Source: an uncultured Candidatus Saccharibacteria bacterium | GTDB taxonomy: Bacteria > Patescibacteriota > Minisyncoccia > Phycocordibacterales > UBA9973 | Direction of reading: 5' to 3' | Assembly: GCA_964646765.1 (NCBI GenBank) | Contig: CAZYIA010000001.1 | Span: 341,621 to 405,620, forward strand | DNA length: 64,000 nucleotides | In this document: positions 13,521 to 53,621 of the stretch, one piece after another | Layout of the letters: each line of letters starts with the position of its first letter | Numbering within the stretch: the stretch's first letter is position 1 | Translations under genes and position numbers: made by a program | Notes under the pieces: generated by a model | The model's database searches: none | What the model saw: the letters and a program-made list of their open reading frames with translations, nothing else | Told to the model about the DNA's origin: nothing

Positions 13521-14495
13521 TCAGCAATTTTCAATCAAATACTTCCTTACCATTGCCATTTCCTTATCCCTACCAGTCATATGCCAATATCGGAATTTCA
13601 TATAAGCGCTTAGAACGACGGCCGCGTGCAATGCTGATTTGTCATATGATGTATTGTCTGAGAAATAGCCTTCTTTTAATTTTTCAACATGGTCATAGTT
13701 GCCTAGTGCACTCAATATCTGAAGACTACGTCCGATGTCTATAATCGGATTATTGAACATTGGGTCTGGATCGATGATCGTGGGAGGGACAGATGCCATA
13801 ATATCGTCTACACAAAAATCCATATGACAATAAGAACTCTTTGGATTGCGTTCATCATAAGCAATAAGAGTGTCAATCACATTTGAGACTGGCCAAAGTT
13901 TCGTATCTAACAAACCAGCCTCCTCAACGTATTTGATTTTATTTTGCACTTTTTCACTCCTAATCCAATCCTTAAATGTCTTGTATTCTGCCTTACCATC
14001 CACAAGGTAGCCGTAACCTTCAGCGCTGGGCTTGTGCATAGTAAAAAGAATCTTTCCTAGATCGACCCATATATCACTCTTCACGAGGCCACTATTTATT
14101 GCTTCTGAAAGAACGGGTGCATCGATAAAGCTCATGAGTATGTAGGAGTAGTCTCCTAGTTTTCCCTCCTTATATATATGTGGCACAGTTACTCCAACAT
14201 CTTCCCATTTCTTTAAGAACAGAGCTTCTCCTTCGGCGTCAGGTTTCAAGGGAATTTTAAGAACATACTTATTAGTGCCTGCTTCAATAAATGCCACTAA
14301 GGCTGAGACACCTTGGTGGGAAAATTCCACGGAGATATCCTTACCAACGAACATTTCATCAGAAGAGAAAAAAGATTCTATAAGCGGAACAAGTGCTACG
14401 CGCCGATCATTGAATGTCTTATCAAACTCATGCTCTGAAAACCTTGGCTTATTTTTGTAATGTATCTGGGACATTAGGAAATTATAACGGAACAA
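13521..14495 (-). CDS. Phosphotransferase of the APH/choline-kinase fold
   Basis: Brenner-type catalytic motif HMDFCVDDIM and a downstream IIDPDPMF (DxD). Confidence 0.65.
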   Translation of the reverse strand: MFRYNFLMSQIHYKNKPRFSEHEFDKTFNDRRVALVPLIESFFSSDEMFVGKDISVEFSHQGVSALVAFIEAGTNKYVLKIPLKPDAEGEALFLKKWEDVGVTVPHIYKEGKLGDYSYILMSFIDAPVLSEAINSGLVKSDIWVDLGKILFTMHKPSAEGYGYLVDGKAEYKTFKDWIRSEKVQNKIKYVEEAGLLDTKLWPVSNVIDTLIAYDERNPKSSYCHMDFCVDDIMASVPPTIIDPDPMFNNPIIDIGRSLQILSALGNYDHVEKLKEGYFSDNTSYDKSALHAAVVLSAYMKFRYWHMTGRDKEMAMVRKYLIENC

Positions 14496-14542
14496 GAAAC
14501 CTGAGTGAAATTATGGAAAATAGTTTTGTGCGCCGGGAAGGA

Positions 14543-14557
14543 ATTTCTCGGCTTACA
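14543..14557. repeat. 15-bp direct repeat of the tRNA-Tyr 3' region. It is a putative attL/attR core.
   Basis: GTGCGCCGGGAAGGA is identical at 14543..14557 and 18876..18890. Confidence 0.5.
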
Positions 14558-14663
14558 GCCGCAGTACACCTTTTCGGCGAATTCAAAACAAGTTTCTCAT
14601 TTGCAGCGAAAAGCTCTTAGAATCCTTCCCGCGACTGAAGCAGTTCAGTCGCTCCGGCCACGT

Positions 14664-14689
14664 AAAAAACGGCCTTGAAGCCGTTTTTT
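14664..14689. terminator. Bidirectional terminator hairpin
   Basis: AAAAAACGGC-CTTGAA-GCCGTTTTTT. Confidence 0.55.
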
Positions 14690-14692
14690 AGT

Positions 14693-14890
14693 GTGTCTCT
14701 ATTGTACCAAGTTAGAACCTATTTCCAAAATAAATAAAGCGGACGAATTTTTGCGAAACAATTTTTCTGGGGAAAAGGATTCGCAAAAATTCGGCTGATT
14801 TTTTTTGAAATTCGGACTCGCCCGCGCGGAGGAGGGGTCTGGGGAGGAATCCGCGCGGGCTTCGGCTTTTTGTTTTTTGGCGGGGCGGGC
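14693..14890. repeat. IR1-L, a 198-bp perfect inverted repeat whose partner is 16809..17006
   Basis: Comparing the two arms by eye, they are exact reverse complements. Each arm contains a GC-rich hairpin, GCCCGCGCGGA...TCCGCGCGGGC, followed by a T-tract. Confidence 0.9.
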
Positions 14891-14928
14891 AAATAGAAAA
14901 AACAGCGAAAAAATGATAAAATGAATTT

Positions 14929-15423
14929 ATGGAAAATCCAGAGTTAAATCACGAAAAACCTCCTATTGCTGTTGAGAAAATATCTCACATTTTTTCGTCT
15001 AATGCCGAAAAGCGTATTTGTGTTGTTGGTGCAAGCTGTGTAGGAAAATCTACTTTACTTCGGTTTTTGCCAGAAGCTGTTGATATGGACGATTTGCTTT
15101 TCGGCAACAAACAAAAAGGAATTGAGCCATTACTTACACAACAAGAAAGAGATTATGTCTGTGGGCCTTGGACACCAGAAGTCGGTCAATTTATGACCAA
15201 GAAAGCCCACGAACTTATAAAAATTGAAGCAGGTCATCCAGTTTTCGGCACAATCGTTTTTCCATCAGATTTAGTAATTGAAGTGTCTGTTCCCGACGAT
15301 ATTTTACGAGAAAGGATTAGGCGAAGAAACTCAAATGAGCAAGATGTTTTTAACATGAAAGCACAAATTGAATCTGAAATTGAAAAGTCGGGTATAGAGA
15401 AAATTGTTATTGAAAATATATGA
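14929..15423 (+). CDS. Small P-loop NTPase (kinase-like)
   Basis: Walker A motif VVGASCVGKST. The protein is 164 aa. Confidence 0.45.
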   Translation: MENPELNHEKPPIAVEKISHIFSSNAEKRICVVGASCVGKSTLLRFLPEAVDMDDLLFGNKQKGIEPLLTQQERDYVCGPWTPEVGQFMTKKAHELIKIEAGHPVFGTIVFPSDLVIEVSVPDDILRERIRRRNSNEQDVFNMKAQIESEIEKSGIEKIVIENI

Positions 15424-16043
15424 AAATAATTCTCGCCTCAGATTTAAGTTTTCTTTTGAAATACGGTTATGATTTAACTGGCATTCCAAAGTCCGAAATG
15501 AAAATCGGATATATTACAACCGCTTCAAAAGGATCAAGAGATACGGCATTTCTTGAAAAAGTTAAAAATGCGATGAAAGAAAACGGTATTGATTTTGAGG
15601 AAATTGATATTGAGGGTAAAAGCAAAGATGAAATACTTAACTTTTTCAAGAACAAAAACATTATTCATGTTGAGGGCGGAAATACTTTTTATTTGCTAAA
15701 AGCAATTAGAGAAAGTGGTTTTGCAGAGGCACTGAAAGAATTATTGAACGAGGGGAAAATTTATATCGGCACAAGTGCGGGAGCGTATGTTATGTGTCCA
15801 ACTATTGAAGTAGCAAACTGGAATGAAACTGGTAGAGATAGATTTGGTTTAACTGATTTTTCAGCGTTAAATTATGTACCTTTTGTTTTGAAAGTCCATT
15901 ACAAAGACGAAATGGAAAATACAGTGAAAGAAAAAATGAGAACTCTAAAATATCCGCTTAGAATTTTGCGAGACGGACAAGGGATTTTGGTCGAAAATGG
16001 TGAATATGAATTTGTCGGAGATAATCCCGAAGTAATTTTTTAA
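15420..16043 (+). CDS. Peptidase family S51 (dipeptidase E / cyanophycinase-like)
   Basis: The family-typical HVEGGNTFYLL motif and IGTSAGA (Ser nucleophile region) are present. Confidence 0.6.
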   Translation: MKIILASDLSFLLKYGYDLTGIPKSEMKIGYITTASKGSRDTAFLEKVKNAMKENGIDFEEIDIEGKSKDEILNFFKNKNIIHVEGGNTFYLLKAIRESGFAEALKELLNEGKIYIGTSAGAYVMCPTIEVANWNETGRDRFGLTDFSALNYVPFVLKVHYKDEMENTVKEKMRTLKYPLRILRDGQGILVENGEYEFVGDNPEVIF

Positions 16044-16047
16044 ATTT

Positions 16048-16788
16048 ATGATTAAGCCCATTATTCTTGCAAAAGGAAATTTTAAGCCAGAAGATTTAAT
16101 GACAACAGTCAGTGAATCTAATAGGAAAATTGATCCGAACAGAGAAAATCAATTAAACACTCTTTGGGCGGAAAAAGAGAAGAATGCCAAAGAAAAGGGC
16201 AAATTAATATATAACGGACTTTCTTATCGCTTAAATAGCTTAAAAGCTGAAAATGGTAAATTGTTTTTAGATTTTGGAATTTTTGATTTTAAAACTAGAG
16301 AATGTTTACCGGAAACTCCCGGATTTTACGAAACGACGGAAGAATATTGGCGTAAAGGATGCCATACTATTGCTACAGTTAAAACCTCTGACGATAGGTA
16401 TTTAATGGTGGAACTTTCTGGAAAATCAATGAATAAAAACACAATTGAATTTTTGGGTGGCATAATGGAAACAGAACCACCAATAAAATTAGGTAAGGAC
16501 ATTTTCCATTCGTTATATAAAGAATTGGAAGAGGAAGCGTTTATTACTGAATCAGATATTGCCGATTCTAATTTAAAAATGGTTTATATAAATTGGAATA
16601 CAAATGTTGGTTTTTATTTTGAGATTTTATTAAAACTTACTTCAGAACAATTACAAGAAAGATTTAATGAACAAACAAAAGAAATTGATATTAAATCTCT
16701 AAAAATTATGTCTCGCCCAGAATATATCAATGTGTTAGAGAATCATAACCCTAATAAACAATTTTTAGCGAAGCAAATAGAGATTTAA
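16048..16788 (+). CDS. Hypothetical protein with a weak Nudix-like KELEEEAF segment that is not convincing
   Basis: The ORF is 246 aa. It is the third gene of the IR1-flanked cassette. Confidence 0.35.
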   Translation: MIKPIILAKGNFKPEDLMTTVSESNRKIDPNRENQLNTLWAEKEKNAKEKGKLIYNGLSYRLNSLKAENGKLFLDFGIFDFKTRECLPETPGFYETTEEYWRKGCHTIATVKTSDDRYLMVELSGKSMNKNTIEFLGGIMETEPPIKLGKDIFHSLYKELEEEAFITESDIADSNLKMVYINWNTNVGFYFEILLKLTSEQLQERFNEQTKEIDIKSLKIMSRPEYINVLENHNPNKQFLAKQIEI

Positions 16789-16808
16789 TAACCCCTTTTA
16801 GATTTTAA

Positions 16809-17006
16809 GCCCGCCCCGCCAAAAAACAAAAAGCCGAAGCCCGCGCGGATTCCTCCCCAGACCCCTCCTCCGCGCGGGCGAGTCCGAATTTCAAAAAAAA
16901 TCAGCCGAATTTTTGCGAATCCTTTTCCCCAGAAAAATTGTTTCGCAAAAATTCGTCCGCTTTATTTATTTTGGAAATAGGTTCTAACTTGGTACAATAG
17001 AGACAC
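16809..17006. repeat. IR1-R, a 198-bp perfect inverted repeat
   Basis: It is the reverse complement of 14693..14890. Confidence 0.9.
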
Positions 17007-17148
17007 CAGAATTTTACTAATCGGTTTTTTGGAAGCCCCAATGCGGGACGCGCGAAGCGCGTCCCAAGGATTCCCGCCGATTTTTCCTAATGAATTTGGA
17101 GCGTCGCCTTCGGCGACGCGCACTGTTTTCTCGCCAAGAAGCAGGTTC
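17004..17148. repeat. IR2-L, a 145-bp perfect inverted repeat whose partner is 18733..18877
   Basis: It is the exact reverse complement of IR2-R. It contains hairpins GGGACGCGC-GAA-GCGCGTCCC and GCGTCGCC-TTCG-GCGACGC. It overlaps IR1-R by 3 bp. Confidence 0.9.
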
Positions 17149-17344
17149 AAAATCAGAAGCAATTTTGACTCAGAGTATTTGCTTTGATACAAAAAGAATT
17201 TTTGCCTTTTTTCTAAAAGTAGTATAATGACCTTGCGCAAACTTACGGAAGGTCTATTTTAATGGCCGTCTTGGACTTATCTAGATCTTCTAGGTTTGCG
17301 CACCAGGGCGGCCATTTAAGTTTTATCAATTAATTTTTATTTCT

Positions 17345-18919
17345 ATGCAAAAATTCTTTTTGTATGCTCGCAAGTCAACCGATGTTGAAGATAAACAAGT
17401 GTTATCAATAGACGCTCAACTCACCGAATTGCGGGAGTTCGCCAAGAGAGAAAATTTAGTCATCGCCCGTGAGTTTATAGAAAAACAATCTGCTAAAATT
17501 CCAGGTCGTCCCGTTTTTAATGAAATGATGAAGTGTATTGAAAAGGGCGATGCAGATTGTATTCTCTCTTGGCATCCAGATCGTCTTGCCCGCAATTCAG
17601 TTGATGGTGGCAAGATTATTTACTTTTTAGACATCGGATTGCTTGCGAGCCTCAAATTCCCACAGTTTTGGTTTGAAAGTACGCCACAGGGCAAATTTAC
17701 GCTTTCTATGGCATTTGTACAAAGCAAATACTATGTAGATTCTCTTTCCGATAACACGAAAAGAGGACTTCGCCAAAAAGTACGCATGGGAATATTCCCA
17801 AGCCAAGCGCCAATCGGTTATATAAACGACAGTCGCACCAAAACGATTGTGGTAGAAAAGAAGAAAGCAAAAATCTTGCGCTTGGCTTTTGAACGATATG
17901 TGAAAGGAAATCAAAGGTTAGAGGATATCGCAACTTTTTTGGCAAAGAACGGAATATCTACGCGTTCCGGAAAGAGAATCTCAAAAACGAGAGTGGCTTT
18001 CATTTTGTCCAATCTGTTCTATGTCGGACTTTTTAACTATGCCGGTGAACTTCACGAGGGTAAGCACGAGCCAATCATTTCAAAGAAACTTTTTGATGAA
18101 GCACAGGAAATGCTGAAACTTCGTGGACAACCAGAGCGTAAACCACAAAATGAACCCCAATCTTTCTGCGGACTCATTTCCTGTGCCTCATGCGGGATGA
18201 TGATAACTGGCGAATACAAGGTGAAGAAACAGAAAAATGGCAATGTCCACAATTACACCTACTACCACTGCACGAAAAAACGCAAAGATATGAAATGTCC
18301 CGAACCTTGTATTCGGGAAGAAGAATTAGATCGCCAGTTATCATCTCTAATCAAAAAAGTTTCTTTGCCCAAAGACTGGGCGGAGGAATTGTTAAAAATG
18401 GCAGAAAACGAACATGGAAATTCCGCCCAGTCTTTGACTGCTTGTGTGAAAGAGAACGAAACAAAAATATCGGTCATTTCACAAAAGTTGGAGCGACTTC
18501 TTAATGGATATTTAGAGCAAGATATTGAAAAAGAAGTTTATCGCATAGAAAAAGCAAAACTTGTGTTGCAAAAGAAGTCGCTTGAAGAAGAAATGACCTC
18601 TCTTTCACACAAGCAGAATGATTGGCTCGAACCCTTTACCGAATGGGTGAAAGCCGCTCAATCATTGGACAAAATTGCTTCTGATGATGACCTTTTTGCA
18701 AAAAAGGTCAAAGCCAAAGAAATCTTTGGCTCGAACCTGCTTCTTGGCGAGAAAACAGTGCGCGTCGCCGAAGGCGACGCTCCAAATTCATTAGGAAAAA
18801 TCGGCGGGAATCCTTGGGACGCGCTTCGCGCGTCCCGCATTGGGGCTTCCAAAAAACCGATTAGTAAAATTCTGGTGCGCCGGGAAGGATTCGAACCTTC
18901 GCAGCCCGAAGGCGCTTGA
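17345..18919 (+). CDS. Large serine recombinase (resolvase/invertase catalytic domain, recombinase domain and zinc ribbon)
   Basis: Catalytic region YARKSTDVEDKQ..SIDAQ and W.PDRLARN. There is a Cys-rich zinc ribbon, CGLISCASCG...YYHCTKKRKDMKCPEPC. The 3' tail is encoded by IR2-R and runs antisense into tRNA-Tyr. Confidence 0.85.
   Translation: MQKFFLYARKSTDVEDKQVLSIDAQLTELREFAKRENLVIAREFIEKQSAKIPGRPVFNEMMKCIEKGDADCILSWHPDRLARNSVDGGKIIYFLDIGLLASLKFPQFWFESTPQGKFTLSMAFVQSKYYVDSLSDNTKRGLRQKVRMGIFPSQAPIGYINDSRTKTIVVEKKKAKILRLAFERYVKGNQRLEDIATFLAKNGISTRSGKRISKTRVAFILSNLFYVGLFNYAGELHEGKHEPIISKKLFDEAQEMLKLRGQPERKPQNEPQSFCGLISCASCGMMITGEYKVKKQKNGNVHNYTYYHCTKKRKDMKCPEPCIREEELDRQLSSLIKKVSLPKDWAEELLKMAENEHGNSAQSLTACVKENETKISVISQKLERLLNGYLEQDIEKEVYRIEKAKLVLQKKSLEEEMTSLSHKQNDWLEPFTEWVKAAQSLDKIASDDDLFAKKVKAKEIFGSNLLLGEKTVRVAEGDAPNSLGKIGGNPWDALRASRIGASKKPISKILVRREGFEPSQPEGA
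18733..18877. repeat. IR2-R, a 145-bp perfect inverted repeat
   Basis: It is the reverse complement of 17004..17148. It ends within the CACCA 3' end of tRNA-Tyr. Confidence 0.9.
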
Positions 18920-18958
18920 TTTACAGTCAAGTGCGATTGACCACTCCGCCACCGACGC
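18873..18958 (-). tRNA. tRNA-Tyr(GTA), type II, with CCA encoded
   Basis: Acceptor stem GCGTCGG/CCGGCGC. Anticodon stem CTTGA/TCAAG with loop CTGTAAA. There is a long variable arm. T-arm GAAGG-TTCGAAT-CCTTC. The 3' end is ACCA. Confidence 0.8.
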
Positions 18959-19120
18959 AACTTTGCGACATAAGGTCGCAATCCTCTCTAATGCTCGCCA
19001 CGCTGCGTCGGTGTCGGCCACCTTCGCTACGCTTCGGATAAAAACTGAAGCAGTCCAGTTTTTATCCACCGACGCAATAGAAAACTCTACTAGTATAGTC
19101 AAAAATCGCTTTTTGTCACG

Positions 19121-26870: not shown

Positions 26871-27035
26871 AAATGCGAGGGATCTCCCTCGCCTCTCACT
26901 GTGCCGTCGCACAGTTCGGGCTGGACACCGCCTCACGATTTGCTCTGCTGAGCAAATATCGCTCCGGCGTTCGATCCCTACTCGCACGCCACGCAGGTGG
27001 CGTGCTTGGGCAGGACAAAGAGCGCTTCGCGATTT
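26871..27035 (+). other. Copy 2 of the duplicated structured element. It extends into a hairpin-rich segment that abuts tRNA-Lys.
   Basis: It is about 85% identical to 13227..13345 over roughly 95 nt. There are compensatory changes in two hairpins. The motif GTTCGATCCCTAC is identical to the T-loop and stem of the adjacent tRNA-Lys but in inverted orientation. Read on the minus strand, it ends in GCGAGGGA-GATC-TCCCTCGC followed by a T-tract. Confidence 0.4.
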
Positions 27036-27108
27036 GTCCGCCCAGTAGGGATCGAACCTACGACCGTACGCTTAAGAGGCGTCTGCTCTACCAACTGAGC
27101 TATGGGCG
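27036..27108 (-). tRNA. tRNA-Lys(CTT)
   Basis: D-arm GCTC-AGTTGGTA-GAGC. Anticodon loop CTCTTAA. T-arm GTAGG-TTCGATC-CCTAC. Acceptor stem CCGCCCA/TGGGCGG, with C1:G72 and a G27.A43 mismatch. Confidence 0.7.
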
Positions 27109-27170
27109 GATGTATCTAAATACAGGAGAGACTCTAACAAAAATACCCTTATTTTTCAATACTTATTTAC

Positions 27171-27199
27171 TTGACTTTAGTCAAATTTTAGGGTATAAT
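27171..27199 (+). promoter_or_regulatory. Consensus sigma-70-type promoter
   Basis: TTGACT, then a 17-nt spacer, then TATAAT. It lies about 120 bp upstream of the ORF at 27321. Confidence 0.5.
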
Positions 27200-27320
27200 T
27201 TTATAGATTTCCTTGAAAAAGGAGTATTTCCTCCGCTCCCTTCAAAAACTCAGTTTTTGGGAAGAGTGGAGGCAATACAACTCTATAAACTTAAATTACT
27301 AACCAAAACAAATAATTGTT

Positions 27321-27755
27321 ATGTTCAAAAAAGGCTTAATCGCAATTTGCACCCTTGTTGTAATAATTGCACTTTTCATCTTTTGTCGTGTACTTTTCGG
27401 CCATTCAGACTTGCTTAAAAAAGCAAAGAATAATGGCGGCTGTTACACAACCACTATTAGTGGATCACCCACCCGATTGGAGTGGAAAAACACCGATTGG
27501 AACTTCCAAGTTCCTCCTGGAGTTACTTGTATCGTTGATTATCGGGAACCATATCCGGTGCTTGAAATCTGCGGTATCTGGATAGTGCGCAGTTCTATAA
27601 CTGGAACTGCAAGTTTTAATTCCAATCGTTGGATTACTCCCTTACCTTGTGGTTTAGGAAAAGACTACCCGGTTTACTGTAAATTCCGGACAAAAAATGG
27701 ACAGAAGGTGCCGCTCACTTGCACGATTCTAAAAGAGTGGGAAGAAGAAAACTAA
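27321..27755 (+). CDS. Small Cys-rich secreted/membrane hypothetical protein
   Basis: N-terminal TM helix and eight Cys residues. Confidence 0.4.
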   Translation: MFKKGLIAICTLVVIIALFIFCRVLFGHSDLLKKAKNNGGCYTTTISGSPTRLEWKNTDWNFQVPPGVTCIVDYREPYPVLEICGIWIVRSSITGTASFNSNRWITPLPCGLGKDYPVYCKFRTKNGQKVPLTCTILKEWEEEN

Positions 27756-27780: not shown

Positions 27781-28890
27781 ATGGAAACTCAAGAAACCGT
27801 ATTAATCACCAAACAAGGTACTAACTGGATACAGAGGTTATTATTTCCTTTAGCCAACAAAGTACTTTTTCATTCGCCAGAAGAAAGCTTGATTAACAAA
27901 AAAATCTTCAACGTTATCGTAAGCATACTTCTTGGTTTAATTCTCTCAACTGTTATAACCTTACTACTGACGTTACTTCCTGAAGTGGAGGGATACGCCT
28001 GGTATATCTTTGCAGGCACTTTCTTTTTACTGTTTATTCTTTTTGTTTTTTCAATGGGAGTAGACGATGAAAAAAGACTGGTGGTCATTGGATATAACGA
28101 GGCAGTGCCCTTAGCACTGTTCGGAGTAAAAACCGGAGCCTGGCTGTTTATGGGAAAATATTACATGTGGTTATGGTTTTCTGCTGATGAAAGTGAGAAA
28201 GTTAATCTTGAAAAACAAGAACTGAAAATCACTATTAGCGAAAAACTTTCTGCTGACGGTGAACCCATGTTTATGGACGCGACATACGTGTACATGAAAG
28301 ACCCGACCCGTCTTCCGATATGGGCAAAAACAAACCAGGCAGATTTTGAAAGAACTGCTGAACCCACAATCAGTAATGAACTTTTGAAAGTGATAGGAAA
28401 AGGTAACTACAACACTGACGAACTTACAGGTGATACTTCCTGGATTGCTACCAGTATCATTGGTAAGCGTGGCCCTAAAGGCGAGCTTTCTAAAGAAACT
28501 GATGGTACCGGCAAGTTGATTAACCAGCCTAATGAGCAAATCAAGGCTTTAGAGGCCTTCGGTGTACTTTCGATTGCACTTGTCATTAACGAATTCGAAA
28601 GCGTTAATGTTAAGAACGGTACAAGCACCAAGGCGATGCTGAAACAGATTGGGGAAATCCTGATGCAGTTGGTTGTTAAAAATCCTACTCTTTCAGGGAA
28701 GGCTTTGCATGAAGCTTACCAACTCGCCTTGAGCAGCAACAAGTATTCTGACGAACAATTACAACAACTAAGCGAAAGAGCTGAAACCCAGTGGAATCGC
28801 TTAAACGGTAAAACTACAGAACAACGGATATTTACCGCAGGCGGTGATAATCAGGTTCTGAAATTTTTGAATCTCGACAAAAAACAGTAA
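27781..28890 (+). CDS. Membrane hypothetical protein, possibly SPFH/band-7-like
   Basis: Two N-terminal TM helices followed by a soluble domain. Any homology is weak. Confidence 0.35.
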   Translation: METQETVLITKQGTNWIQRLLFPLANKVLFHSPEESLINKKIFNVIVSILLGLILSTVITLLLTLLPEVEGYAWYIFAGTFFLLFILFVFSMGVDDEKRLVVIGYNEAVPLALFGVKTGAWLFMGKYYMWLWFSADESEKVNLEKQELKITISEKLSADGEPMFMDATYVYMKDPTRLPIWAKTNQADFERTAEPTISNELLKVIGKGNYNTDELTGDTSWIATSIIGKRGPKGELSKETDGTGKLINQPNEQIKALEAFGVLSIALVINEFESVNVKNGTSTKAMLKQIGEILMQLVVKNPTLSGKALHEAYQLALSSNKYSDEQLQQLSERAETQWNRLNGKTTEQRIFTAGGDNQVLKFLNLDKKQ

Positions 28891-28909: not shown

Positions 28910-28945
28910 AAAAATGCCTCTGCAGCTAAGCAGAGGCATTTTCTT
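28910..28945 (+). terminator. Intrinsic terminator
   Basis: AAAAATGCCTCTGC-AGCTAA-GCAGAGGCATTTTCTT. Confidence 0.6.
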
Positions 28946-28955
28946 ATCTCTAGAG

Positions 28956-29345
28956 TTAGAGTTGTCTTCCGAAGTTCTGTGATTTTGGAATTTGATTTTC
29001 GATTTTCTGGTTTTGACTATTCTTCAAATCAAACGTTCGAGAAATGAGAGCCATCAAACCGTATACCGAAACCATAATCACCAAACCAACAATTCCCCAA
29101 ATCATGTGCCGCTTTCCATCGGCAATTTTCGCCTCTTCCCCATTATTTTGGTTTACCAAAAACTGGATAACTCCCCAAATAAAGAGCACGAGAGCAAGTG
29201 TCATGAGGAGCGCTATCAAAGGATCAATAATGTAAGAACCAATCCTACAAATGATAGTATCGATGCGCGTCGTCGGAGGATTACAGTAAGAAAGTCCAAC
29301 TACGGCCGCATGTGCCACTTGTGCTGTGGGAAAAAGAAAAAACAT
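28956..29345 (-). CDS. VirB2/TrbC-like (T4SS-type) pilin family protein
   Basis: C-terminal two-TM module with the loop GEEAKIADGKRH. It is one of five tandem paralogs. Confidence 0.55.
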   Translation of the reverse strand: MFFLFPTAQVAHAAVVGLSYCNPPTTRIDTIICRIGSYIIDPLIALLMTLALVLFIWGVIQFLVNQNNGEEAKIADGKRHMIWGIVGLVIMVSVYGLMALISRTFDLKNSQNQKIENQIPKSQNFGRQL

Positions 29346-29364
29346 GAAACCGATTTAGAAAGTT

Positions 29365-29775
29365 TTAGTAACTTTGACAACCGTTAAGTGGATCGTTATC
29401 AGTATCAACAACACAAGGGATCACTGTCTGACCACCCTGACCAATTCCGAGAGCCTGACCAAGAAGGGCGATAATACCCCAGATAGACATCATCACGAAG
29501 AGACCGATAATGATGTAGATCATGAGACTTTTCGCACCAGCACGTTCCTCTTCATTTTTGTTCGTAACGAACTGGATGATAGTCCAAGCAAGGAGAATAA
29601 AGCCGATAGTAATAACAATCGGAACAACGTAGTTCAGGATGTTCTGAACGAACTTAATGATACCAATGATCTGGTCTTGACCAGCGTTAGCAGCAAACGC
29701 AAAAAGCGGTAAGCTGAGAGCACCGACTGAACCAAGAGAAATAATAACTTTTTTCATACTAACGTATAAATGCAA
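29365..29775 (-). CDS. VirB2/TrbC-like pilin family protein
   Basis: Signal peptide plus a C-terminal two-TM module with the loop NEEERAGAKS. Confidence 0.55.
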   Translation of the reverse strand: MHLYVSMKKVIISLGSVGALSLPLFAFAANAGQDQIIGIIKFVQNILNYVVPIVITIGFILLAWTIIQFVTNKNEEERAGAKSLMIYIIIGLFVMMSIWGIIALLGQALGIGQGGQTVIPCVVDTDNDPLNGCQSY

Positions 29776-29871
29776 CTTCTAATAAAGACCTACTAATACC
29801 TCAAGTATACAGGATTTTAGGGCGCGAGCTACCCCCTTGGGGAAAACGGAGCCTTTAATATAAGGCTATTT

Positions 29872-30762
29872 TTATAGACCAAGAGCAAGTTTGAAGAGTC
29901 TTACGAGACCCCAGACACAGACGATAACGAAAAGGGCGATTAGGCCGTAAATGATGATATTACGAGCTTTTTTCCGCTCCTCAGCATTTCCTGTTGCCAC
30001 AACATACTGGCTAACTCCCCAAGCAAAGTAAATGAAGGCAAGAGTAATAAGCAACTGGATAATAAACGTATTAATGATACAAACAATGTAGTAAATAATA
30101 TCGCTAAATGTTTTGAGCGTGCGGCTACATGTTCCAGGAGAAGAAGAGAGGTGAACCCCGTTACTAAACAGATCAGACGTTCCAAACTTAAATTGCTTCA
30201 GTTGGCTTGCTTTTGTCTTATCGAACGTATCGTTAAGAGTTGCTGTGTAATCCGTCCCATTTGGATCGTTATAATCTCCTGACCATGATTGAAAGGTGGA
30301 ATTATTAAAAAGCCCTTGCTGCCATGGGTCGTACTGGTTATGACCTAACCCAATAAACGGATTAAAGTTATCGTAAGAAACATTATATTGATCGTTTAAA
30401 AAGTACCCATAATTTGCATTTGGATCAGTAAGATTTTGGGCAGTATTAACATTCTGCTGATCATTCACATAATTCTGCTCCGCTAGATTTTGATCTTGAG
30501 AATTAGCATTTATCTGATCATTTGCATTTGTATTTTCATTAACATTAGTTTCCTCGTTAACATTCGCATTCTCGTTAGGATTCTGATTCTGGTTAACGTT
30601 TGCGTCGGTATTGGGATTATTTTGATCATTAACTTGTCCTCCCGTAAACGGATTTGCTTCCGTATTTACATAGGTACCAGTATTTGGATCCTGCTGAGCG
30701 AAAGCCACTCCAGAGAGAACAAGGAGGCTCGCGATACTAAGAGTGATAAAAAATGTTCGCAT
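29872..30762 (-). CDS. VirB2/TrbC-like pilin family protein with an N/Q-rich low-complexity ectodomain
   Basis: A signal peptide, then long N/Q/D-rich repeats, then the C-terminal two-TM module (GNAEERKKARN). Confidence 0.55.
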   Translation of the reverse strand: MRTFFITLSIASLLVLSGVAFAQQDPNTGTYVNTEANPFTGGQVNDQNNPNTDANVNQNQNPNENANVNEETNVNENTNANDQINANSQDQNLAEQNYVNDQQNVNTAQNLTDPNANYGYFLNDQYNVSYDNFNPFIGLGHNQYDPWQQGLFNNSTFQSWSGDYNDPNGTDYTATLNDTFDKTKASQLKQFKFGTSDLFSNGVHLSSSPGTCSRTLKTFSDIIYYIVCIINTFIIQLLITLAFIYFAWGVSQYVVATGNAEERKKARNIIIYGLIALFVIVCVWGLVRLFKLALGL

Positions 30763-30764
30763 AC

Positions 30765-31196
30765 TTATTTTGCAATTGCAGAGATGGTATCACTCACAAT
30801 CTGAGTTAATGCCCACGCACCAAGTAAAATTGCTGCTCCCAAGAGAGTATAAATAAATGTTCGTTTAGCTGCTTCAAGTTTTTCGGTACTACCACGAGCG
30901 CTAACAAAGAGGAAGCCAGAATAAATAATCGCAAGAGCAATAATAGGAATTGCGATCTTAATAACGGTATCTACAACAGACTTAATAAAATCTGTCAGAC
31001 TTGTAACTTTTAAAGGATTTTCTAAGTATTCAACAGTTGGAGCACTTGAAGGTGTTGGGGGACAATTTGTAGAAGTACTAACACCACCATTTGCTTGTCC
31101 GGGACAGGTTGCCTGTACTTTAGTTGCTCCTCCAATAAGTGCAAAAACAAAGAAACTTAGAATCAACAAATATTGGACAAAATATATTTTCTTCAT
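30765..31196 (-). CDS. VirB2/TrbC-like pilin family protein
   Basis: A signal peptide, a Cys pair, and the C-terminal two-TM module (GSTEKLEAAKR). Confidence 0.55.
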   Translation of the reverse strand: MKKIYFVQYLLILSFFVFALIGGATKVQATCPGQANGGVSTSTNCPPTPSSAPTVEYLENPLKVTSLTDFIKSVVDTVIKIAIPIIALAIIYSGFLFVSARGSTEKLEAAKRTFIYTLLGAAILLGAWALTQIVSDTISAIAK

Positions 31197-31198
31197 AC

Positions 31199-32815
31199 CT
31201 ACTGCTGTAATAACTTATAAGAAGCGGCACTATCTGCTTTCAAGAGAGTATCCAAAATAAGATTCACGATAAGCCATGCACACAAAATACAGATAAGACC
31301 AATGAGCATATTGATAATAACATGCTTCGCGCGGCTGCGAGCTTCTTCGCTGCCTCCTTTGGCAATGAAGAGGAAGCCAATATATACAAAACCAATAGCC
31401 ATAATTGGAATCGCAATAACAATGAGCCATTTGATCACATTATTTACGAGCTGTATCAGATAAGCAAACGTACACGGCTGCCATCGAGATCCATCACAGG
31501 GCACCAAGTTACCCGGAGCAACTAAAGGCGCTGACGGCCCGACTCCAGAATTAGTCCCTCCACTCGTACTGGAAGCTCCTCCGGTTGTACTACCAGCAGG
31601 AGTAAGAGTTGCCGTAAACGTTTTCGGCGACATATATGCTTTTGCCGGGTCATCGAAATTTACGAAGGTATAGTAGTAGGTATGGTTAGGTAAAAGCGAG
31701 TGCATGACAAATGGAAAAGTATCCGTATCACCCGCATTCATAATTCGGAAAAATACAGGATTTTCCCATAACTTATTCATAGAACTTGGAGAATCTCCCC
31801 AAACAAGACCAACTGAATAAGAATCCCCTTTGTAAATTTTAACTGACGCAGTACCACTTGCTTGACGATCGGTACCCGACGCATCCATAGCAACGGTAAT
31901 TGCGTTATCAGTAGTTACATCAATACATCGTCCGGTTATGGCTGGCGGTGGAATTGGTTGACCGTTTAGGCCTATAAGCGGCTGAGCATTACAGTTTGGA
32001 TCAAGTGAGAGTAGCTGAGTACCGTACGGGCCTCCAATAATAATGTGATCTGATACTGAAGCTTGATCAGTATCAATTGATTCAGACCACAACGCTGTAC
32101 TTTGACCTGAGAGATAAACCTCTACTTGATATGTTGAGGAAGGATCGAGGCCTGAAAGGGTAACATTAAACGGATACTCCTGCCCATACGTTACCATCTG
32201 TGAAAAAACCCCTGGTCCAGAAACTGTCTGGGGTTGTCCCCCACTTTTCGTATAATGAACTTCAAGATTAACTTGCGTTGAAAGACTTGAGCGCAACATA
32301 CCCGCAAGCACAATTGAAGTACTTGATTGAGTGTAATCTACCTCTGGAGTACTTCCATACGCTCCGGAAGGTTTTCGTATCTCAATTTCTGGAATGTCAC
32401 TCAACGTTTGAACTGCTGGTGGTGTTGCAATAAGATCTGCTGAATCACTTGTATCAAAAAAAGCAAAATCGTATGAAGTATTCGGAGTTAAGCTACCAAT
32501 CGTTACGGTAAATGGAACTGGTGTATTGAGTGCAACGCTTGATTGGCTGACAATATCATTTGAGACAACATAGGTATACTGTCCTCCAGTAACTCCCCAC
32601 TTTACTCGTAGATGTATTGGTGCATGCTGCCCAGGTGGATTGATGATGCTATGAATCGTAACAGTGCCAGCAAAATCCACTGAATTGATATGTGGGGTAA
32701 TTGAAGAAAAAGCAATATCTCTTTGGACATACGCAAAGGTATGTTGGGGTACCGACAAAAAGAGACCGAGTGCTAGGGTGAGAAGTGCGGCAAAACGAAA
32801 CGTTCGTTTGAGCAT
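31199..32815 (-). CDS. Large secreted protein (538 aa) whose C-terminus is a VirB2/TrbC-like pilin module
   Basis: A signal peptide and a large ectodomain of about 430 aa. The C-terminal two-TM module (GGSEEARSRAKH) is homologous to the four downstream genes. Confidence 0.55.
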   Translation of the reverse strand: MLKRTFRFAALLTLALGLFLSVPQHTFAYVQRDIAFSSITPHINSVDFAGTVTIHSIINPPGQHAPIHLRVKWGVTGGQYTYVVSNDIVSQSSVALNTPVPFTVTIGSLTPNTSYDFAFFDTSDSADLIATPPAVQTLSDIPEIEIRKPSGAYGSTPEVDYTQSSTSIVLAGMLRSSLSTQVNLEVHYTKSGGQPQTVSGPGVFSQMVTYGQEYPFNVTLSGLDPSSTYQVEVYLSGQSTALWSESIDTDQASVSDHIIIGGPYGTQLLSLDPNCNAQPLIGLNGQPIPPPAITGRCIDVTTDNAITVAMDASGTDRQASGTASVKIYKGDSYSVGLVWGDSPSSMNKLWENPVFFRIMNAGDTDTFPFVMHSLLPNHTYYYTFVNFDDPAKAYMSPKTFTATLTPAGSTTGGASSTSGGTNSGVGPSAPLVAPGNLVPCDGSRWQPCTFAYLIQLVNNVIKWLIVIAIPIMAIGFVYIGFLFIAKGGSEEARSRAKHVIINMLIGLICILCAWLIVNLILDTLLKADSAASYKLLQQ

Positions 32816-32848: not shown

Positions 32849-34168
32849 TTACAGAGCGAGTTGTAATTGGCTTCGAGCTTTAGAAAGTGCTTCAGAAGGA
32901 GTTGCCGCCCCTCGGACAATGTCATCAATCAATCCACTCATGATTGGATCAGAAAAATAGTCTCCTGGGTCGTACCAACCACGTGCCATTAACCCGGAAG
33001 CATAAATAGTAGTAGCGTACGCTGGTGTTTCCGGTGGAGTACCAATAAGATCACGCCGGGCTGGCGCAAGTGGTGCTGCTTCAGAAAGAGTACTTACCAA
33101 TGTTTGAGAATTTTCTGGACTAGAAATAAGCGTTGCTAAAGAAAGTGCTTGCTGCGGATTCTTCCCTGCTTTAATGACCCCAAGCGCATATACTTTACCA
33201 AAAGTTAGATTCAACTTACCTTGTGGTAACTGAGGAACTTTTATTATGTCGAAGTTCAGATTCGGGTTCTTTTCTGAAATTGCAGGAAGTTCACTAGCAT
33301 ACCCAAAATAGAATACGAGAGATTCTCGGATAAAGGCATCACGCGCTGGTACTTGTGCTTTATTCCATGTATAGGCTTTTGAAACAGGGTCAGAAAATTG
33401 GGTAAAAAATTGAAGAACAGCTTGAGCTGGTGAAACATCGGTACCATTATCAAATCCAAGTGTTGCACTAAATCCTTCATTTTGTTTAGCAACAATAGGC
33501 TCACCTACTTGAATAAAAAGCATTGAAAGGATGTCCTTGGCATTGTTTAGATTACTATAGACTCCAAATGGAACGGCACTTTGGTTAATAGTGAGGTCTC
33601 CTTGCTTTTTAGTCAGTGACGGCGTAATGCCAGTAAGCACATCCCAGGTTTTTGGTGGTACTGAATACCCTGCATTTTCAAGCAAGTTCTTGTTGTAGTA
33701 CATCACTATTGGATCAACCGCGACTGGCAAACCTACAATACCGTCTGGAAGCATGAACAAACTTCCTTCCTCAATGTACGTATTTCGAAATGTTTGTTCT
33801 GGCAAACTACTATACGGAATGTGAACGAGTTTCGCTTGATTCTGAAGAATATCTTCTTGCGACATAAGAATAAGATCAGGACCTACACCAGAAGCAATTG
33901 CTTCAGCTAGTTCAAGTGAAAACGTTCGTGGATCTTTAGCAAGATAATTTATTTTGAGACCAGTATTAGAAACACTTAGACTATCAAAAAAGTCTCGCAG
34001 ACCATCTGCTTTAGCTGTGCCCCAAATTACAAAATTACCAGATAGCTTTCCACCATCAGAACTTCCTTTTCCTATAGGAATAATGCCAGAAAAAATAAGT
34101 ACGGCGAAAGCAATAACAACAATAGAGAAGATGAGGATCCCGATTTGAAAAGCGGAGACGTTTTTCAT
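32849..34168 (-). CDS. Extracellular solute-binding protein (ABC transporter SBP-like)
   Basis: An N-terminal anchor, and size and composition consistent with an SBP_bac_1-like domain. This is a weak assignment. Confidence 0.35.
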   Translation of the reverse strand: MKNVSAFQIGILIFSIVVIAFAVLIFSGIIPIGKGSSDGGKLSGNFVIWGTAKADGLRDFFDSLSVSNTGLKINYLAKDPRTFSLELAEAIASGVGPDLILMSQEDILQNQAKLVHIPYSSLPEQTFRNTYIEEGSLFMLPDGIVGLPVAVDPIVMYYNKNLLENAGYSVPPKTWDVLTGITPSLTKKQGDLTINQSAVPFGVYSNLNNAKDILSMLFIQVGEPIVAKQNEGFSATLGFDNGTDVSPAQAVLQFFTQFSDPVSKAYTWNKAQVPARDAFIRESLVFYFGYASELPAISEKNPNLNFDIIKVPQLPQGKLNLTFGKVYALGVIKAGKNPQQALSLATLISSPENSQTLVSTLSEAAPLAPARRDLIGTPPETPAYATTIYASGLMARGWYDPGDYFSDPIMSGLIDDIVRGAATPSEALSKARSQLQLAL

Positions 34169-34189: not shown

Positions 34190-34717
34190 TTACTTCTTTT
34201 TAAAGATGAAGCCATAGTGGTGAGTTCCTCCGTCGAGTTCGCGCTCTTTTAAGAATCCATGCTGCGAAAATATCAAGAGGGCTTTCTCTGGAGATACCAA
34301 CCGATCTGCTTTTGGTCCAATTGGGTCTAGAGTATCCGCCCAATCAATAAAATATACATGACCTCCCGGCTTTACCACTCGAGCAAGCTCTCGTAAAAAG
34401 GCTTCTCGATCACTTGTTTGAAATAACACATTCGCAACAATTGTTCCATCAAGTGTAGCATCAGCAAGTTTGGTTCCACCTTTTCGTTCAGCATCAGCCC
34501 AAATACAAGAAAAATTCGTCAGCGACCGAGCCTCAGCTTCTTTTCGTAGACGTTCAACTAAACCACGCTGCACATCACAGGCATAAACTTTTCCTTTGGG
34601 TCCAACCATTTGAGCTGCGGCAAGTGCAAAGGTGCCACTGCCAGCACCAATGTCAGCAACATGCATTCCAGGTGTGATACCAAATTGTTTTACAAGAGTA
34701 ACAGGATCAATGAACAT
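34190..34717 (-). CDS. Class I SAM-dependent methyltransferase
   Basis: Motif I VADIGAGSG and an acidic motif after a beta-strand. Confidence 0.65.
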   Translation of the reverse strand: MFIDPVTLVKQFGITPGMHVADIGAGSGTFALAAAQMVGPKGKVYACDVQRGLVERLRKEAEARSLTNFSCIWADAERKGGTKLADATLDGTIVANVLFQTSDREAFLRELARVVKPGGHVYFIDWADTLDPIGPKADRLVSPEKALLIFSQHGFLKERELDGGTHHYGFIFKKK

Positions 34718-45064: not shown

Positions 45065-45216
45065 CCCTTTACAGTATACTACTTTTTTTGGTAGGATGGC
45101 CGCTGTACGTTCTTTTCGCAAGTTTACCCTTGAGAAATCAGTGGGTAGACACACTTCGAAAGTATGTTCTCATTTTGGCTTCGGCTACTGTGCGAATGTG
45201 CGCTCGAAGTGCACAT

Positions 45217-45288
45217 TCCGCGGTAGCTCAGCGGTAGAGCGTCCCGCTGTTAACGGGAGGGTCCCTGGTTCGAATCCAGGCCGCGGAG
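45217..45288 (+). tRNA. tRNA-Asn(GTT)
   Basis: Acceptor stem TCCGCGG/CCGCGGA. Anticodon stem TCCCG/CGGGA with loop CTGTTAA. T-arm CCTGG-TTCGAAT-CCAGG. Confidence 0.85.
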
Positions 45289-46995
45289 CATAGTAGAAAA
45301 AACTGGCGAAAACTCGCTGGTTTTTTCGTTTAAGCTTTTCATATCAAGCCAATTCTTAGGTTCGGACTTTTGAAATTCGCTTTCCATCAAAGAAACTACT
45401 TCAAAGAGCTTCTCAACTGATTTTTGCTTGATAACACTAACTTTTTCTTCATCCCACACTAGGTTCGTACCAAGTCTATGAAGTAGTGATTTTTTAGCTT
45501 TTAATTGACCATTCTGCATTACATCAAAGAACTCTTGAGACAGGTCAATAATCTCATTTGCTCTCTTGGTCCAGTCAAAGGTATTAGTTGGCTTATTAGA
45601 GGTCTTAAAACGCTCCTCAAGGTCTCTTAAATCGCTTTTGTATTCATCTTCGGTGATAAGCTCATTAGCCAATATTTTACGCATCTTCCTCTTCATATCC
45701 TCATATTCATCCGATTGCTTTAAGGCTATTTCTTCCTTAAGAAGATTTTCATTAATCTCATTGTCTCTAAGCTCGCTTATGAACTTTCTAGCCCAATCAG
45801 CTACTTTCTGAGACATAGGTATTTTACCTTTTGCATCAGCAAGTAAGGCGGTCATTATTTTGTCAGAATTAATAGACTTAACTCCTAGTTTTTTCTTCTT
45901 ACGAGTTATGTTGTAGTAGTAAGAGTAATCTAAATACTTTGGTTTTTCCATTTTATCTATCTCAATACCACACTGAGGGCATTGAGTTTTGTCTCTGTAA
46001 GGAAATTTGTTTTTGCAATCACAGATAACCTGATACTTCTTATCAAGCCCAATGTATTCACCATTTGGAGAAGATACAAAACCTACAAAAACATCATCGT
46101 GTGTTTGTGTCTTTGGGATATTTCTCCTTTGTAAGATTGCTTTTATTTTATTGTGTTCATCTTCCGTGATTAAGCGAGGCAACTCTTTATCTAGTTCATA
46201 TCTTTCACCTCCATAGAAAAAGAAACCAGCGTAAATTGGGTCTGTAAGTATTTCATATATTCTTGATAGTTGAATGAGTTCACCTCCAATTCTTTTTCTT
46301 CTAACAGTAGTGAGCTTAAGGTCTTTTGTTGCATATCCGTGTAGCTTGCCAGCGGACCATTCACCAGTTAAAAAAGTTTTCAGTATCTGTTGTATTTTGG
46401 GAAGTCTTTCCTTATCAACTAACCATTTTCTATTTCCTTTTTCTTCTGTTTTGTCGTTTAGAAAACCGAGAGAAGCAACTCCGTGAGGTATACCCAGTGT
46501 TGCTTTCTTGGTCTGACCACGTTTAACATTTATAGATAAATCTTTTACAAACTGTTTACCTTGCCCAAATTCAACAGACATAAGTAAAACATTGTCAGTT
46601 GGATAATAAACCTTATCGTGAGTAATAATTGCTTTTAGAACACCAGAGCTTAGTAAATCAATCAACATTCCTCCCTCGGTCATATTTCGTGCCAATCGGT
46701 CAAGTTTCCAACACACAATGGCATCAATTACACCGCTTTTTATCATAGCTATCATCTCGCCAAATTGAGGTCTAACAAACTCTTTTTTGGCTGATTTCGC
46801 TTCTTGAAATATTTGTATAAACTTTGGGAGCTTATAGTACTCAGCAATCCTTTGAGCTTCTTCAATTTGCGAAACCACTGAAAGCATTTGCTTATCTTCA
46901 CTCTCAGAAGACTTTCTGTTGTAATTTACTGGCTTTAATTTTGTGAAATCAAGTTGTATATAATTATTCATAAATAAAAATGAGGTAACGACCAT
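45250..46995 (-). CDS. Large serine recombinase/integrase, paralogous to the one at 17345..18919
   Basis: Catalytic segment NRKSSESEDKQ and W.LDRLARN, a recombinase domain, and a zinc ribbon CDCKNKF...CPQCG. The last 13 codons overlap the tRNA-Asn 3' half. Confidence 0.85.
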   Translation of the reverse strand: MVVTSFLFMNNYIQLDFTKLKPVNYNRKSSESEDKQMLSVVSQIEEAQRIAEYYKLPKFIQIFQEAKSAKKEFVRPQFGEMIAMIKSGVIDAIVCWKLDRLARNMTEGGMLIDLLSSGVLKAIITHDKVYYPTDNVLLMSVEFGQGKQFVKDLSINVKRGQTKKATLGIPHGVASLGFLNDKTEEKGNRKWLVDKERLPKIQQILKTFLTGEWSAGKLHGYATKDLKLTTVRRKRIGGELIQLSRIYEILTDPIYAGFFFYGGERYELDKELPRLITEDEHNKIKAILQRRNIPKTQTHDDVFVGFVSSPNGEYIGLDKKYQVICDCKNKFPYRDKTQCPQCGIEIDKMEKPKYLDYSYYYNITRKKKKLGVKSINSDKIMTALLADAKGKIPMSQKVADWARKFISELRDNEINENLLKEEIALKQSDEYEDMKRKMRKILANELITEDEYKSDLRDLEERFKTSNKPTNTFDWTKRANEIIDLSQEFFDVMQNGQLKAKKSLLHRLGTNLVWDEEKVSVIKQKSVEKLFEVVSLMESEFQKSEPKNWLDMKSLNEKTSEFSPVFSTMLRGLDSNQGPSR

Positions 46996-47425
46996 TACTT
47001 AAGTTGCTACACCAAGTGGGTCATTACCTCGTTTTTATCCACAAAAATACTTAATTATAGTAAAAGTATTTTTATGATATTCACCTGGTGTAGCACTTAC
47101 ATTTTATCACAGTTGTAAGTATCTGTTTATCTTTACTCTATCCAAAAAGATAGTTAAAAGCCCTATATAATAGATGCTTTACTTAACCGTTTGATGATTA
47201 TTTTTATTCTCATCTCAAGTACGGAAACTATATTTTCCTTATTCAGTATTGCTATTACCACAATACAACTTAGACCTTATGTAGTTCTTAGTATCGGGTA
47301 GGATTATAGTTTTACATTGTTCCTATTTATCCCGCTTTTCTTTACTCCCTCCAACTAGGATTGCTGTCCCAGACATCAGTTATAAAGTCCTTATATTTTT
47401 ACAGCTATAAGGTCCGCCCACCGTT

Positions 47426-47471
47426 AGAGTCATTACTGACTCTGTACTGTCTACTGCAATAGACAGTACAG
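47426..47471. repeat. Twin perfect palindromes inside the AT-rich noncoding block
   Basis: AGAGTCA-TTAC-TGACTCT is directly followed by CTGTACTGTCTA-CTGCAA-TAGACAGTACAG. Confidence 0.6.
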
Positions 47472-47660
47472 AATTAGCAATTATTTTCTATTCTTAACTT
47501 CAAACCTTGAGCCATAATTTCAAGAAACAACTGACCTAAATGGTCCAGTTCTTCTTCTGATAAAGAATTAACAAAAACCTCTCCATATTCTTTCTGGAGA
47601 ACTTCTTTAAGTTCAGTTAATGCTTTGTTACTAAGACTCATAGTTTGAGTCCTCTCGTAT

Positions 47661-47686
47661 GCAAAAAGCAGTCTAGAGGACTGCTT
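47661..47686 (-). terminator. Intrinsic terminator for the minus-strand gene ending at 47724
   Basis: The minus strand reads AAGCAGTCCTCTAGACTGCTTTTTGC. Confidence 0.5.
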
Positions 47687-47723
47687 ATATTGTCGTATTT
47701 ATCTCTATTTACCTCAGCCCCTT

Positions 47724-48557: not shown

Positions 48558-48565
48558 AAACGAGT

Positions 48566-53620: not shown

Positions 53621-53621
53621 A

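Follow-up and report, generated by a model that had tools for sequence, protein, structure and literature searches.

A 64-kb chromosomal stretch from an ultrasmall candidate-phyla-radiation (CPR; Patescibacteria) bacterium (contig CAZYIA010000001.1; "the window" denotes the whole 64,000-nucleotide stretch analysed) carries at 28956-32815 a tandem array of five minus-strand genes, whose products sequence profiles place in the VirB2/TrbC-type pilin family. On balance, we think it probable that these genes are an ancient, non-redundant set of major and minor pilins that serves a type IV secretion system (T4SS) encoded elsewhere in the genome and is used in host contact. A large part of bacterial diversity belongs to the Patescibacteria, which live attached to other microbes, and the array bears on how they hold their hosts and feed from them. 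In the sole genetically tractable lineage, that of Southlakia, the T4SS and its pilin array are essential (PMC10633639). Paceibacteria, the largest class, keep a separately encoded, order-fixed set of five to six pilins coupled to a solute-binding-protein-like (SBP-like) protein, and a putative, conserved internal promoter splits this set into variable, ectodomain-bearing members and conserved short members. This arrangement leads to testable predictions as to which subunits are major and which minor, which of them carry host specificity and whether the SBP-like protein is part of the apparatus. Surveys limited to the virB4 neighbourhood can miss such arrays. The array is an instance of a published phenomenon, the patescibacterial pilin arrays of 2023-2025, and its novelty is modest; the SBP coupling, the positional orthology, the internal promoter and the fibronectin type III (FnIII)-bearing pilin were not found described in the literature on those arrays.

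Family membership of the five proteins

The array consists of five consecutive open reading frames (ORFs), all on the minus strand, that fill 28956-32815. Their boundaries agree with a preliminary description of the window, which had reported five tandem genes ending in a first transmembrane helix, a loop and a second helix; the two-helix hairpin was present in all five. In the order in which they are read, the genes are g5 (31199-32815), a pilin paralog of 538 amino acids (aa), g4 (30765-31196; 143 aa), g3 (29872-30762; 296 aa), g2 (29365-29757), a short secreted paralog of 130 aa, and g1 (28956-29345), a paralog of 129 aa that lacks a canonical signal peptide. The same five genes were called independently on two Logan metagenome contigs. 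The longest ORF of g2 opens at a TTG codon at 29775, and both Logan gene calls use the ATG at 29757.

The VirB2/TrbC likeness suggested in the preliminary description was borne out by hidden Markov model (HMM) searches. All five proteins exceed the gathering score (26.6 bits) of the Pfam family PF18895 (T4SS_pilin), with 33.4 bits for g5, 30.2 for g4, 34.6 for g3, 33.0 for g2 and 29.1 for g1. The threshold of PF04956 (TrbC/VirB2), 27.9 bits, is passed by g4 (31.8 bits); g1 scores 17.6 bits and stays below it. Matches to NF045849, an NCBIfam model of pilin-like proteins of mycoplasma integrative and conjugative elements (ICEs), were obtained for all five at sub-threshold scores (21-28 bits vs a cut-off of 40). 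Hydropathy analysis demonstrated two transmembrane segments in every protein and an N-terminal hydrophobic signal in g2-g5. The helices are joined by a short charged loop in which E and A are invariant across all five proteins, and pairwise module identity between the paralogs is 17-38%. The AlphaFold2 (AF2) model of g2 consists of a simple helical hairpin (residues 27-65 and 69-102), and that of g5 has its hairpin at residues 450-485 and 490-525. Judged by their profile matches, the five genes are genuine members of a patescibacterial family of VirB2-like pilins.

The extent of this family was visible only by exhaustive profile search. Word-indexed homology searches found five relatives for g5 and seven for g2, and a search of genome contigs with g5 found none. 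A profile made from the window modules and a few homologues was searched against 1.84 billion proteins (E up to 1e-3), resulting in 48,044 cluster representatives with many domain architectures. Many of the matched polypeptides hold 2-17 concatenated modules, which suggests side-by-side packing of the modules in a polymer. P0029 (1775 aa), P0078 and P0032 are among the multi-module polypeptides, the longest of which may be assembly or gene-calling artefacts.

Divergent N-terminal parts

The variety of N-terminal parts ahead of the shared module was found as first described, except that two of the reported lengths had to be reduced: the N/Q-rich part of g3 spans about 190 aa rather than 230, and the folded part of g5 about 375 aa rather than 430. 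In g5 a signal peptide (aa 1-27) is followed, in the AF2 model (predicted local distance difference test score 68.5), by three beta-sandwich domains at residues 30-130, 144-250 and 258-402 (together aa 30-402, nucleotides (nt) 31610-32728), then by a 45-aa disordered G/S/T linker (aa 405-449; nt 31469-31603) and finally by the pilin module (aa 450-525; nt 31241-31468). Pfam matches of g5 are to Pur_ac_phosph_N and fn3, and the top Foldseek matches are tandem FnIII fragments (E about 1e-8); the modelled ectodomain is thus predicted to comprise three FnIII-like domains. Among the only five detectable homologues of g5, the module and a Cys pair (C440/C448, in LVPCDG...C) are nearly invariant, and the ectodomain is variable and partly replaced.

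The remaining four proteins carry less elaborate N-terminal parts. A signal peptide, a short S/T/P-rich stretch and a Cys pair (C31/C45) precede the module in g4. The signal peptide of g3 is followed by an N/Q/D-rich low-complexity region (aa 23-215; nt 30118-30696), in which N and Q together make up 31% of 193 aa, and then by the module; the g3 orthologue in locus L003 is likewise N/Q-rich (24%). Apart from its signal peptide and two helices, g2 has a tail with a Cys pair at the C-terminus. Only about 28 aa precede the module in g1, which lacks both a proper signal peptide and an ectodomain. One member had been credited with a Cys pair; this holds for g4, but g5 and g1 each have a pair immediately ahead of helix 1, and g2 has one at its C-terminus.

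Positional orthology of the array in related genomes

To place the array in a comparative frame, an HMM made from the five window modules was applied to 80 gyrA-centred loci from GTDB genomes. Five to six pilin genes occupy the same place in 46 of the 80 loci. When the count is restricted to loci whose downstream sequence extends over 6 kb or more (n=52), 47 carry at least four pilin genes and 4 carry none. Array positions were counted back from the array end, so that -1 denotes the last gene (g1) and -2 denotes g2. For positions -1 to -5, respectively, the closest module from another genome occupied the identical position in 45/48, 42/48, 38/48, 34/48 and 32/48 cases, and the paralogs are therefore old and distinct. 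This positional orthology spans genomes whose GyrA proteins are only about 60% identical, and no trace of recent duplication or shuffling among the array paralogs was detected.

The classes can also be told apart consistently by signal peptide, length and Cys pattern. Positions -2 and -1 are short and length-constrained (medians of 128 and 109 aa), and upstream positions range from 65 to 636 aa. The -1 class, for which only 1 of 48 arrays shows a signal-peptide-like N-terminus, is the best conserved of the array, with a mean module identity across loci of 44%. Two- and three-module fusions occur at some -3 and -4 positions (for example, L060 7917-8945 and L014 16630-17205). Taken together, the comparative sequence data favour fixed roles for what appear to be five to six positionally orthologous, non-redundant paralog classes.

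Conservation is unevenly distributed over the unit. In a comparison with a relative at 93% GyrA identity, IF-2 is 83% and the SBP-like protein 70% identical, g1 and g2 reach 65-67%, and g4, g3 and g5 fall to 61%, 49% and 37%, respectively. Against a relative with 81% identical GyrA, g5 can be aligned in the module only. Such fast divergence of the ectodomains fits a surface in host contact.

Organization of the transcription unit

From g5 to g1 the intergenic gaps measure 2, 2, 114 and 19 nt. The long gap, ahead of g2 (29758-29871, minus strand), contains a small hairpin just past the g3 stop codon (29850-29867) and a TG-extended, -10-like element, TG-TATACT (29804-29811), which we infer to be a candidate internal promoter for g2-g1. 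A corresponding spacer is present in other genomes: in 48 arrays the distance between positions -3 and -2 has a median of about 105 nt and is at least 60 nt in 83%, and all other array junctions have medians of 4-10 nt. The -3/-2 spacers are AT-rich, and a TGnTATAAT-like element is found in 31 of 45 vs 23% of shuffled spacers. A consensus promoter scan of the window gave no enrichment, and the putative internal promoter is visible only by comparison of spacers across loci. Rfam searches found no known RNA in the array or its spacer.

A second conserved motif, AGGTCGTTT, was noted in the aligned spacers; the -10 element precedes it by about 20-25 nt, and the start codon follows after about 25-35 nt. 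The window has it in the form AGGTCTTT at 29783-29792, and it is seen ahead of position -2 in L013, L015, L016, L019, L024, L029, L044 and L062. The pattern AGGT[CA][GT]T occurs in 13 of 45 spacers vs 4% of shuffled ones.

Downstream of g1, a terminator scan revealed a 13-bp stem-loop (28911-28942) with T/A runs on both sides, which by its predicted structure is a bidirectional intrinsic terminator for the array and for the convergent gene at 27781-28890. In 83% of related loci, a strong hairpin (median -21.8 kcal/mol) comes after the final gene of the array.

Neighbouring genes

The gene immediately upstream of the array (32849-34168, minus strand) encodes a membrane-anchored SBP-like protein of 439 aa, with above-threshold matches to SBP_bac_8/SBP_bac_1 (E about 1e-17), and ends 33 nt before g5. 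An SBP-like gene lies 0-61 nt upstream of the array in all 47 related loci, and the adjacency is kept in loci reached without gyrA seeding (L088, L089, L090 and L091), of which L091 has no nearby gyrA. No ABC permease or ATPase gene adjoins the SBP-like gene here or in more than 50 related loci, and the protein scores far below the cut-off of the named NCBIfam sugar-binding equivalogs. A class I S-adenosylmethionine-dependent methyltransferase of 175 aa (34190-34717, minus strand; Methyltransf_25/11/31 matches) is encoded 21 nt further upstream and is the conserved first gene of the unit. It precedes the SBP-like gene in 47 of 47 loci as well as in L090 and L091; a Y1 transposase takes its place in L088 and L089.

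Two plus-strand genes converge on the array from the other side, one encoding a secreted, Cys-rich protein of 144 aa (27321-27755) and the other a protein of 369 aa with two N-terminal transmembrane helices (27781-28890). These genes were considered as partners of the array and dropped because they have no detectable counterpart even in the relative with 93% identical GyrA. Similar-sized genes fill the convergent slot in that relative, and a more distant locus has a Band_7 protein there.

Genome context and the expected secretion system

The source bacterium belongs to the class Paceibacteria and is "Nomurabacteria"-like; the window GyrA is at most 81% identical to that of metagenome-assembled genomes labelled Nomurabacteria or Paceibacterota. 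The window is ordinary chromosome (ParB, MiaA, a Mur ligase, ClpB, IF-2, RbfA, GyrA and S1, further Pth, signal peptidase, HisRS, Def and Fmt), and the neighbours of the array are housekeeping genes. VirB4 and VirB6 had been reported as missing from the window, and our own inspection confirmed this, since every window ORF of at least 450 aa carries another Pfam assignment and no unassigned ORF is polytopic.

Genes missing from a 64-kb stretch may nevertheless lie elsewhere in the genome. VirB4 was found in 2,417 of 3,035 Patescibacteria assemblies searched (PMC12102498). In that survey, which used PF18895 and PF04956 for its pilin search, VirB2-like pilins were present in 1,948 VirB4-positive assemblies, and in only 1,135 was a pilin near virB4. 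The virB4 gene of Paceibacteria tends toward the dnaA and dnaN neighbourhood (PMC12102498). The six related RIFCS assemblies with a gyrA-linked array, which are all those that could be checked, are VirB4-positive (Table S1, PMC12102498), one of the six arrays being cut by a contig end. In the entries consulted from Table S3 of the same study, RAAC4_OD1_1 has a VirB6, VirB3, TrsD and VirB4 cluster with one adjacent VirB2, and Nomurabacteria have a similar cluster without a listed VirB6.

Comparison with known pilin systems

Tandem pilin arrays have been described from other Patescibacteria. A recent survey counted 441 arrays, of 2-11 pilin genes that share 25% identity on average, and reported them as most abundant in Microgenomatia and Saccharimonadia (Quinonero-Coronel et al. 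2025, PMC12102498). Southlakia epibionticum has six PF18895 pilins, SEML1_0014-0019, inside its T4SS cluster (Wang et al. 2023, PMC10633639), and all six were classed as essential by transposon sequencing (PMC10633639). The window array resembles these in its PF18895 members with or without PF04956, its tandem arrangement of five to six genes, its paralog identity of about 25%, its chromosomal location in a monoderm CPR host and its lack of a relaxase context. It fits the published definition of an array in having at least two PF18895/VirB2 genes in tandem or one non-pilin gene apart, but that definition also demands a position within 20 coding sequences of virB4, and no T4SS gene lies within 28 kb of the window array; the array ring of that study is likewise defined near virB4 (Fig. 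S9 legend, PMC12102498). Unlike the published arrays, the window array is part of a conserved methyltransferase, SBP-like and pilin operon of Paceibacteria, and two of its members bear large N-terminal ectodomains.

Relaxases are absent from most patescibacterial T4SS loci, which are believed to have been co-opted for host interaction (PMC12102498, PMC10633639). This fits the initial suggestion that the array does not form a canonical conjugative pilus. A 2025 review speaks of potentially pilus-forming monoderm T4SSs. T4SS pilins, including one adjacent gene pair, are among the top-expressed secreted unknowns of two cultivated Paceibacteria (Kuroda et al. 2024, PMC10936435).

More distant systems share single traits with the array. 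Agrobacterium VirB2, RP4 TrbC and F TraA have the same long signal peptide, two-helix hydrophobic hairpin and short polar loop; however, these classical pilins are single genes beside virB3 and virB4 of diderms, whereas the window host is monoderm, and they possess neither large ectodomains nor five-paralog sets. The TraF cyclase and TraX acetylase of classical pilin processing were not seen here. The VirB2 arrays of Bartonella and Anaplasma phagocytophilum are likewise tandem paralogs of a host-associated bacterium, but they are read as antigenic-variation repertoires, while the window paralogs fall into ancient classes with fixed positions and distinct structures. With type IV pili and type II secretion pseudopili the likeness is one of function only: there too a polymerisation module is shared by non-redundant co-encoded paralogs, some of which bear extra domains and one or two of which are abundant. 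Type IV pilins differ in having a single N-terminal helix with a globular head, a PilD peptidase and PilB/PilC, and are of unrelated fold and machinery. The Mycoplasma ICE protein Mbov_0395 (NF045849) and the archaeal Ced/Ted pilins are VirB2-like two-helix proteins of cells without an outer membrane, but are encoded by single genes inside conjugation or DNA-import clusters.

Proposed function and competing explanations

In the function that we propose, four of the five pilins would be exported by Sec and their signal peptides cleaved, the hairpin would sit in the membrane and the short charged loop would be cytoplasmic. A monoderm-type T4SS (VirB4, TrsD, PrgI/VirB3 and VirB6), encoded elsewhere in the genome, would then extract the hairpins and assemble from them a surface structure resembling a pilus or a stalk. 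The short, length-constrained g2 and g1, which have their own conserved candidate promoter, would supply the bulk or core subunits, with g2 as the candidate major subunit, and g5, g4 and g3 would be low-abundance minor pilins sharing the polymerisation module. The fast-evolving outer ectodomains, namely the FnIII-like domains on a flexible linker (g5) and the N/Q-rich region (g3), would meet the host cell. In solved conjugative pili both pilin termini face outward; the N-terminal FnIII stalk of g5, with its 45-residue linker, would therefore project from the filament.

Several results weigh against this proposal. We know of no pilus of this type seen in any patescibacterium. No gene for VirB4, VirB6, VirB3 or a coupling protein is present in the window (about 28 kb and about 30 genes on each side of the array), no T4SS gene was found in the 3 kb past its left end (via ParB), and a heuristic based on size and a Walker A motif found no VirB4-like ORF within 10 kb of the array in 47 loci. 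VirB2 in the strict sense is encoded with, or depends on, VirB4, VirB3 and VirB6 of a T4SS, and within the window the array stands apart from all three. The paceibacterial T4SS loci listed in the consulted entries of Table S3 (PMC12102498) own a single adjacent VirB2, and the array could therefore serve a different machine or none. The invariant linkage to the SBP-like gene is left unaccounted for by a T4SS pilin model. Structure comparison was also unsupportive: Foldseek with the g2 hairpin model returned nothing significant (best E 1.7), a Pyrobaculum conjugative pilin ranked only 21st (E 4.2), and a sequence profile search of the PDB gave only G-protein-coupled receptor (GPCR) and transmembrane noise. 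A fold as simple as a helical hairpin does not allow family membership to be decided by fold search; with no significant structural neighbour, membership rests on sequence profiles and not on fold.

The separation of the array from T4SS genes, in the window and in the 47 related loci, speaks for a display function independent of a T4SS, in which the hairpin would be a C-terminal membrane anchor for variable ectodomains, with no pilus and no need for VirB4. The hairpins would perhaps form small membrane oligomers and the short members would be scaffolds or chaperones. The pilin adjacent to the paceibacterial T4SS loci among those entries, the invariable coupling of the array to a membrane-anchored SBP-like protein and the sheer number of family members (48,044 cluster representatives) with their many domain architectures point in the same direction. 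A display role is, however, hard to match with g1, g2 and g4, which have little or no ectodomain, and with the two best-conserved classes, which carry no cargo. Moreover, the polypeptides of 2-17 modules suggest side-by-side packing in a polymer, PF18895/PF04956 membership ties the module to polymerising proteins, and the homologous Southlakia array lies inside a T4SS cluster (PMC10633639). We regard display as possible, though rather unlikely.

The conserved order of the unit also permits a reading in which methyltransferase, orphan SBP and five to six pilins are one dedicated organelle, separate from the origin-proximal T4SS, that is a nutrient-scavenging pilus and not a device of secretion or conjugation. 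A heteromeric VirB2-type filament of fixed paralog classes would grip the host through variable, adhesin-bearing subunits, the tethered SBP would capture host-derived molecules at or through the filament, and the methyltransferase might modify the pilins. A T4SS-independent function of this or another kind deserves to be kept in mind because of the separate location of the array, the T4SS's own pilin and the invariant SBP linkage; we consider the nutrient-scavenging organelle in particular to be unlikely.

Tandem paralogs of low identity, with ectodomains that change very rapidly and give way to others among close relatives, could also be an interchangeable repertoire of major pilins for antigenic or host-range variation of the Bartonella/Anaplasma type, an interpretation raised in PMC12102498. 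This is difficult to reconcile with positional orthology at about 60% GyrA identity, with module identities of 17-38% and no recent duplication or shuffling, with classes that differ in signal peptide, length and Cys pattern, and with the essentiality of all six Southlakia pilins (PMC10633639). In addition, there is no obvious means to choose one pilin, because all but the last pair share a tightly packed transcription unit. A repertoire therefore seems to us quite improbable.

Finally, weak sub-threshold matches to many unrelated membrane families, the GPCR and transmembrane noise of the PDB search and the label "permease" that some database sources give to homologues could be taken to mean that the five belong to unrelated kinds of small membrane protein, such as holins, transporter subunits or bacteriocin-immunity proteins, and are pilin-like by hydrophobic composition only, but five scores above the PF18895 threshold, one above that of TrbC, sub-threshold NF045849 matches in all five and the lack of a phage context make this scarcely credible. 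Placement in an unrelated family such as holins, which the preliminary description had named as the contrary outcome, did not occur: the array proteins gave no match to PHROG phage or holin families at E up to 0.01, and a holin or phage identity was rejected on this ground together with the housekeeping neighbours and the PF18895 scores of all five.

Other features of the window

A low-GC island (32-34%) extends from about 45200 to 56200. It is bounded by a tRNA gene (45217-45288) that overlaps with the terminal part of the gene for a large serine recombinase (45250-46995). Several unknown ORFs lie inside it, as do the res (48566-51214) and mod (51201-53108) genes of a type III restriction-modification pair, and the whole probably represents an element that integrated at this tRNA gene. 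A LOOT RNA (Rfam RF03000; 74.5 bits vs a gathering score of 46.4) lies within it on the plus strand at 53172-53295, with a small ORF close behind. GC content is also lowered (37-38%) at about 14000-19000, where there are another large serine recombinase gene (17345-18919) and a tRNA gene (18876-18958). A 181-aa ORF (26873-27418, plus strand) overlaps a tRNA gene (27037-27109) and the next gene and is probably not a real gene.

Two giant surface proteins are encoded on the minus strand, one of 1588 aa (8375-13141) and one of 788 aa (61477-63843). Both combine Big_9, cadherin-like and fn3 repeats with a C-terminal peptidoglycan-binding domain, and high expression of proteins with peptidoglycan-binding domains has been reported for cultivated Paceibacteria (PMC10936435). 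A copper/heavy-metal cluster on the plus strand (57145-61390) comprises an HMA P-type ATPase, an HMA-DsbD_2 fusion, a cupredoxin-like protein and a GlpM-like protein.

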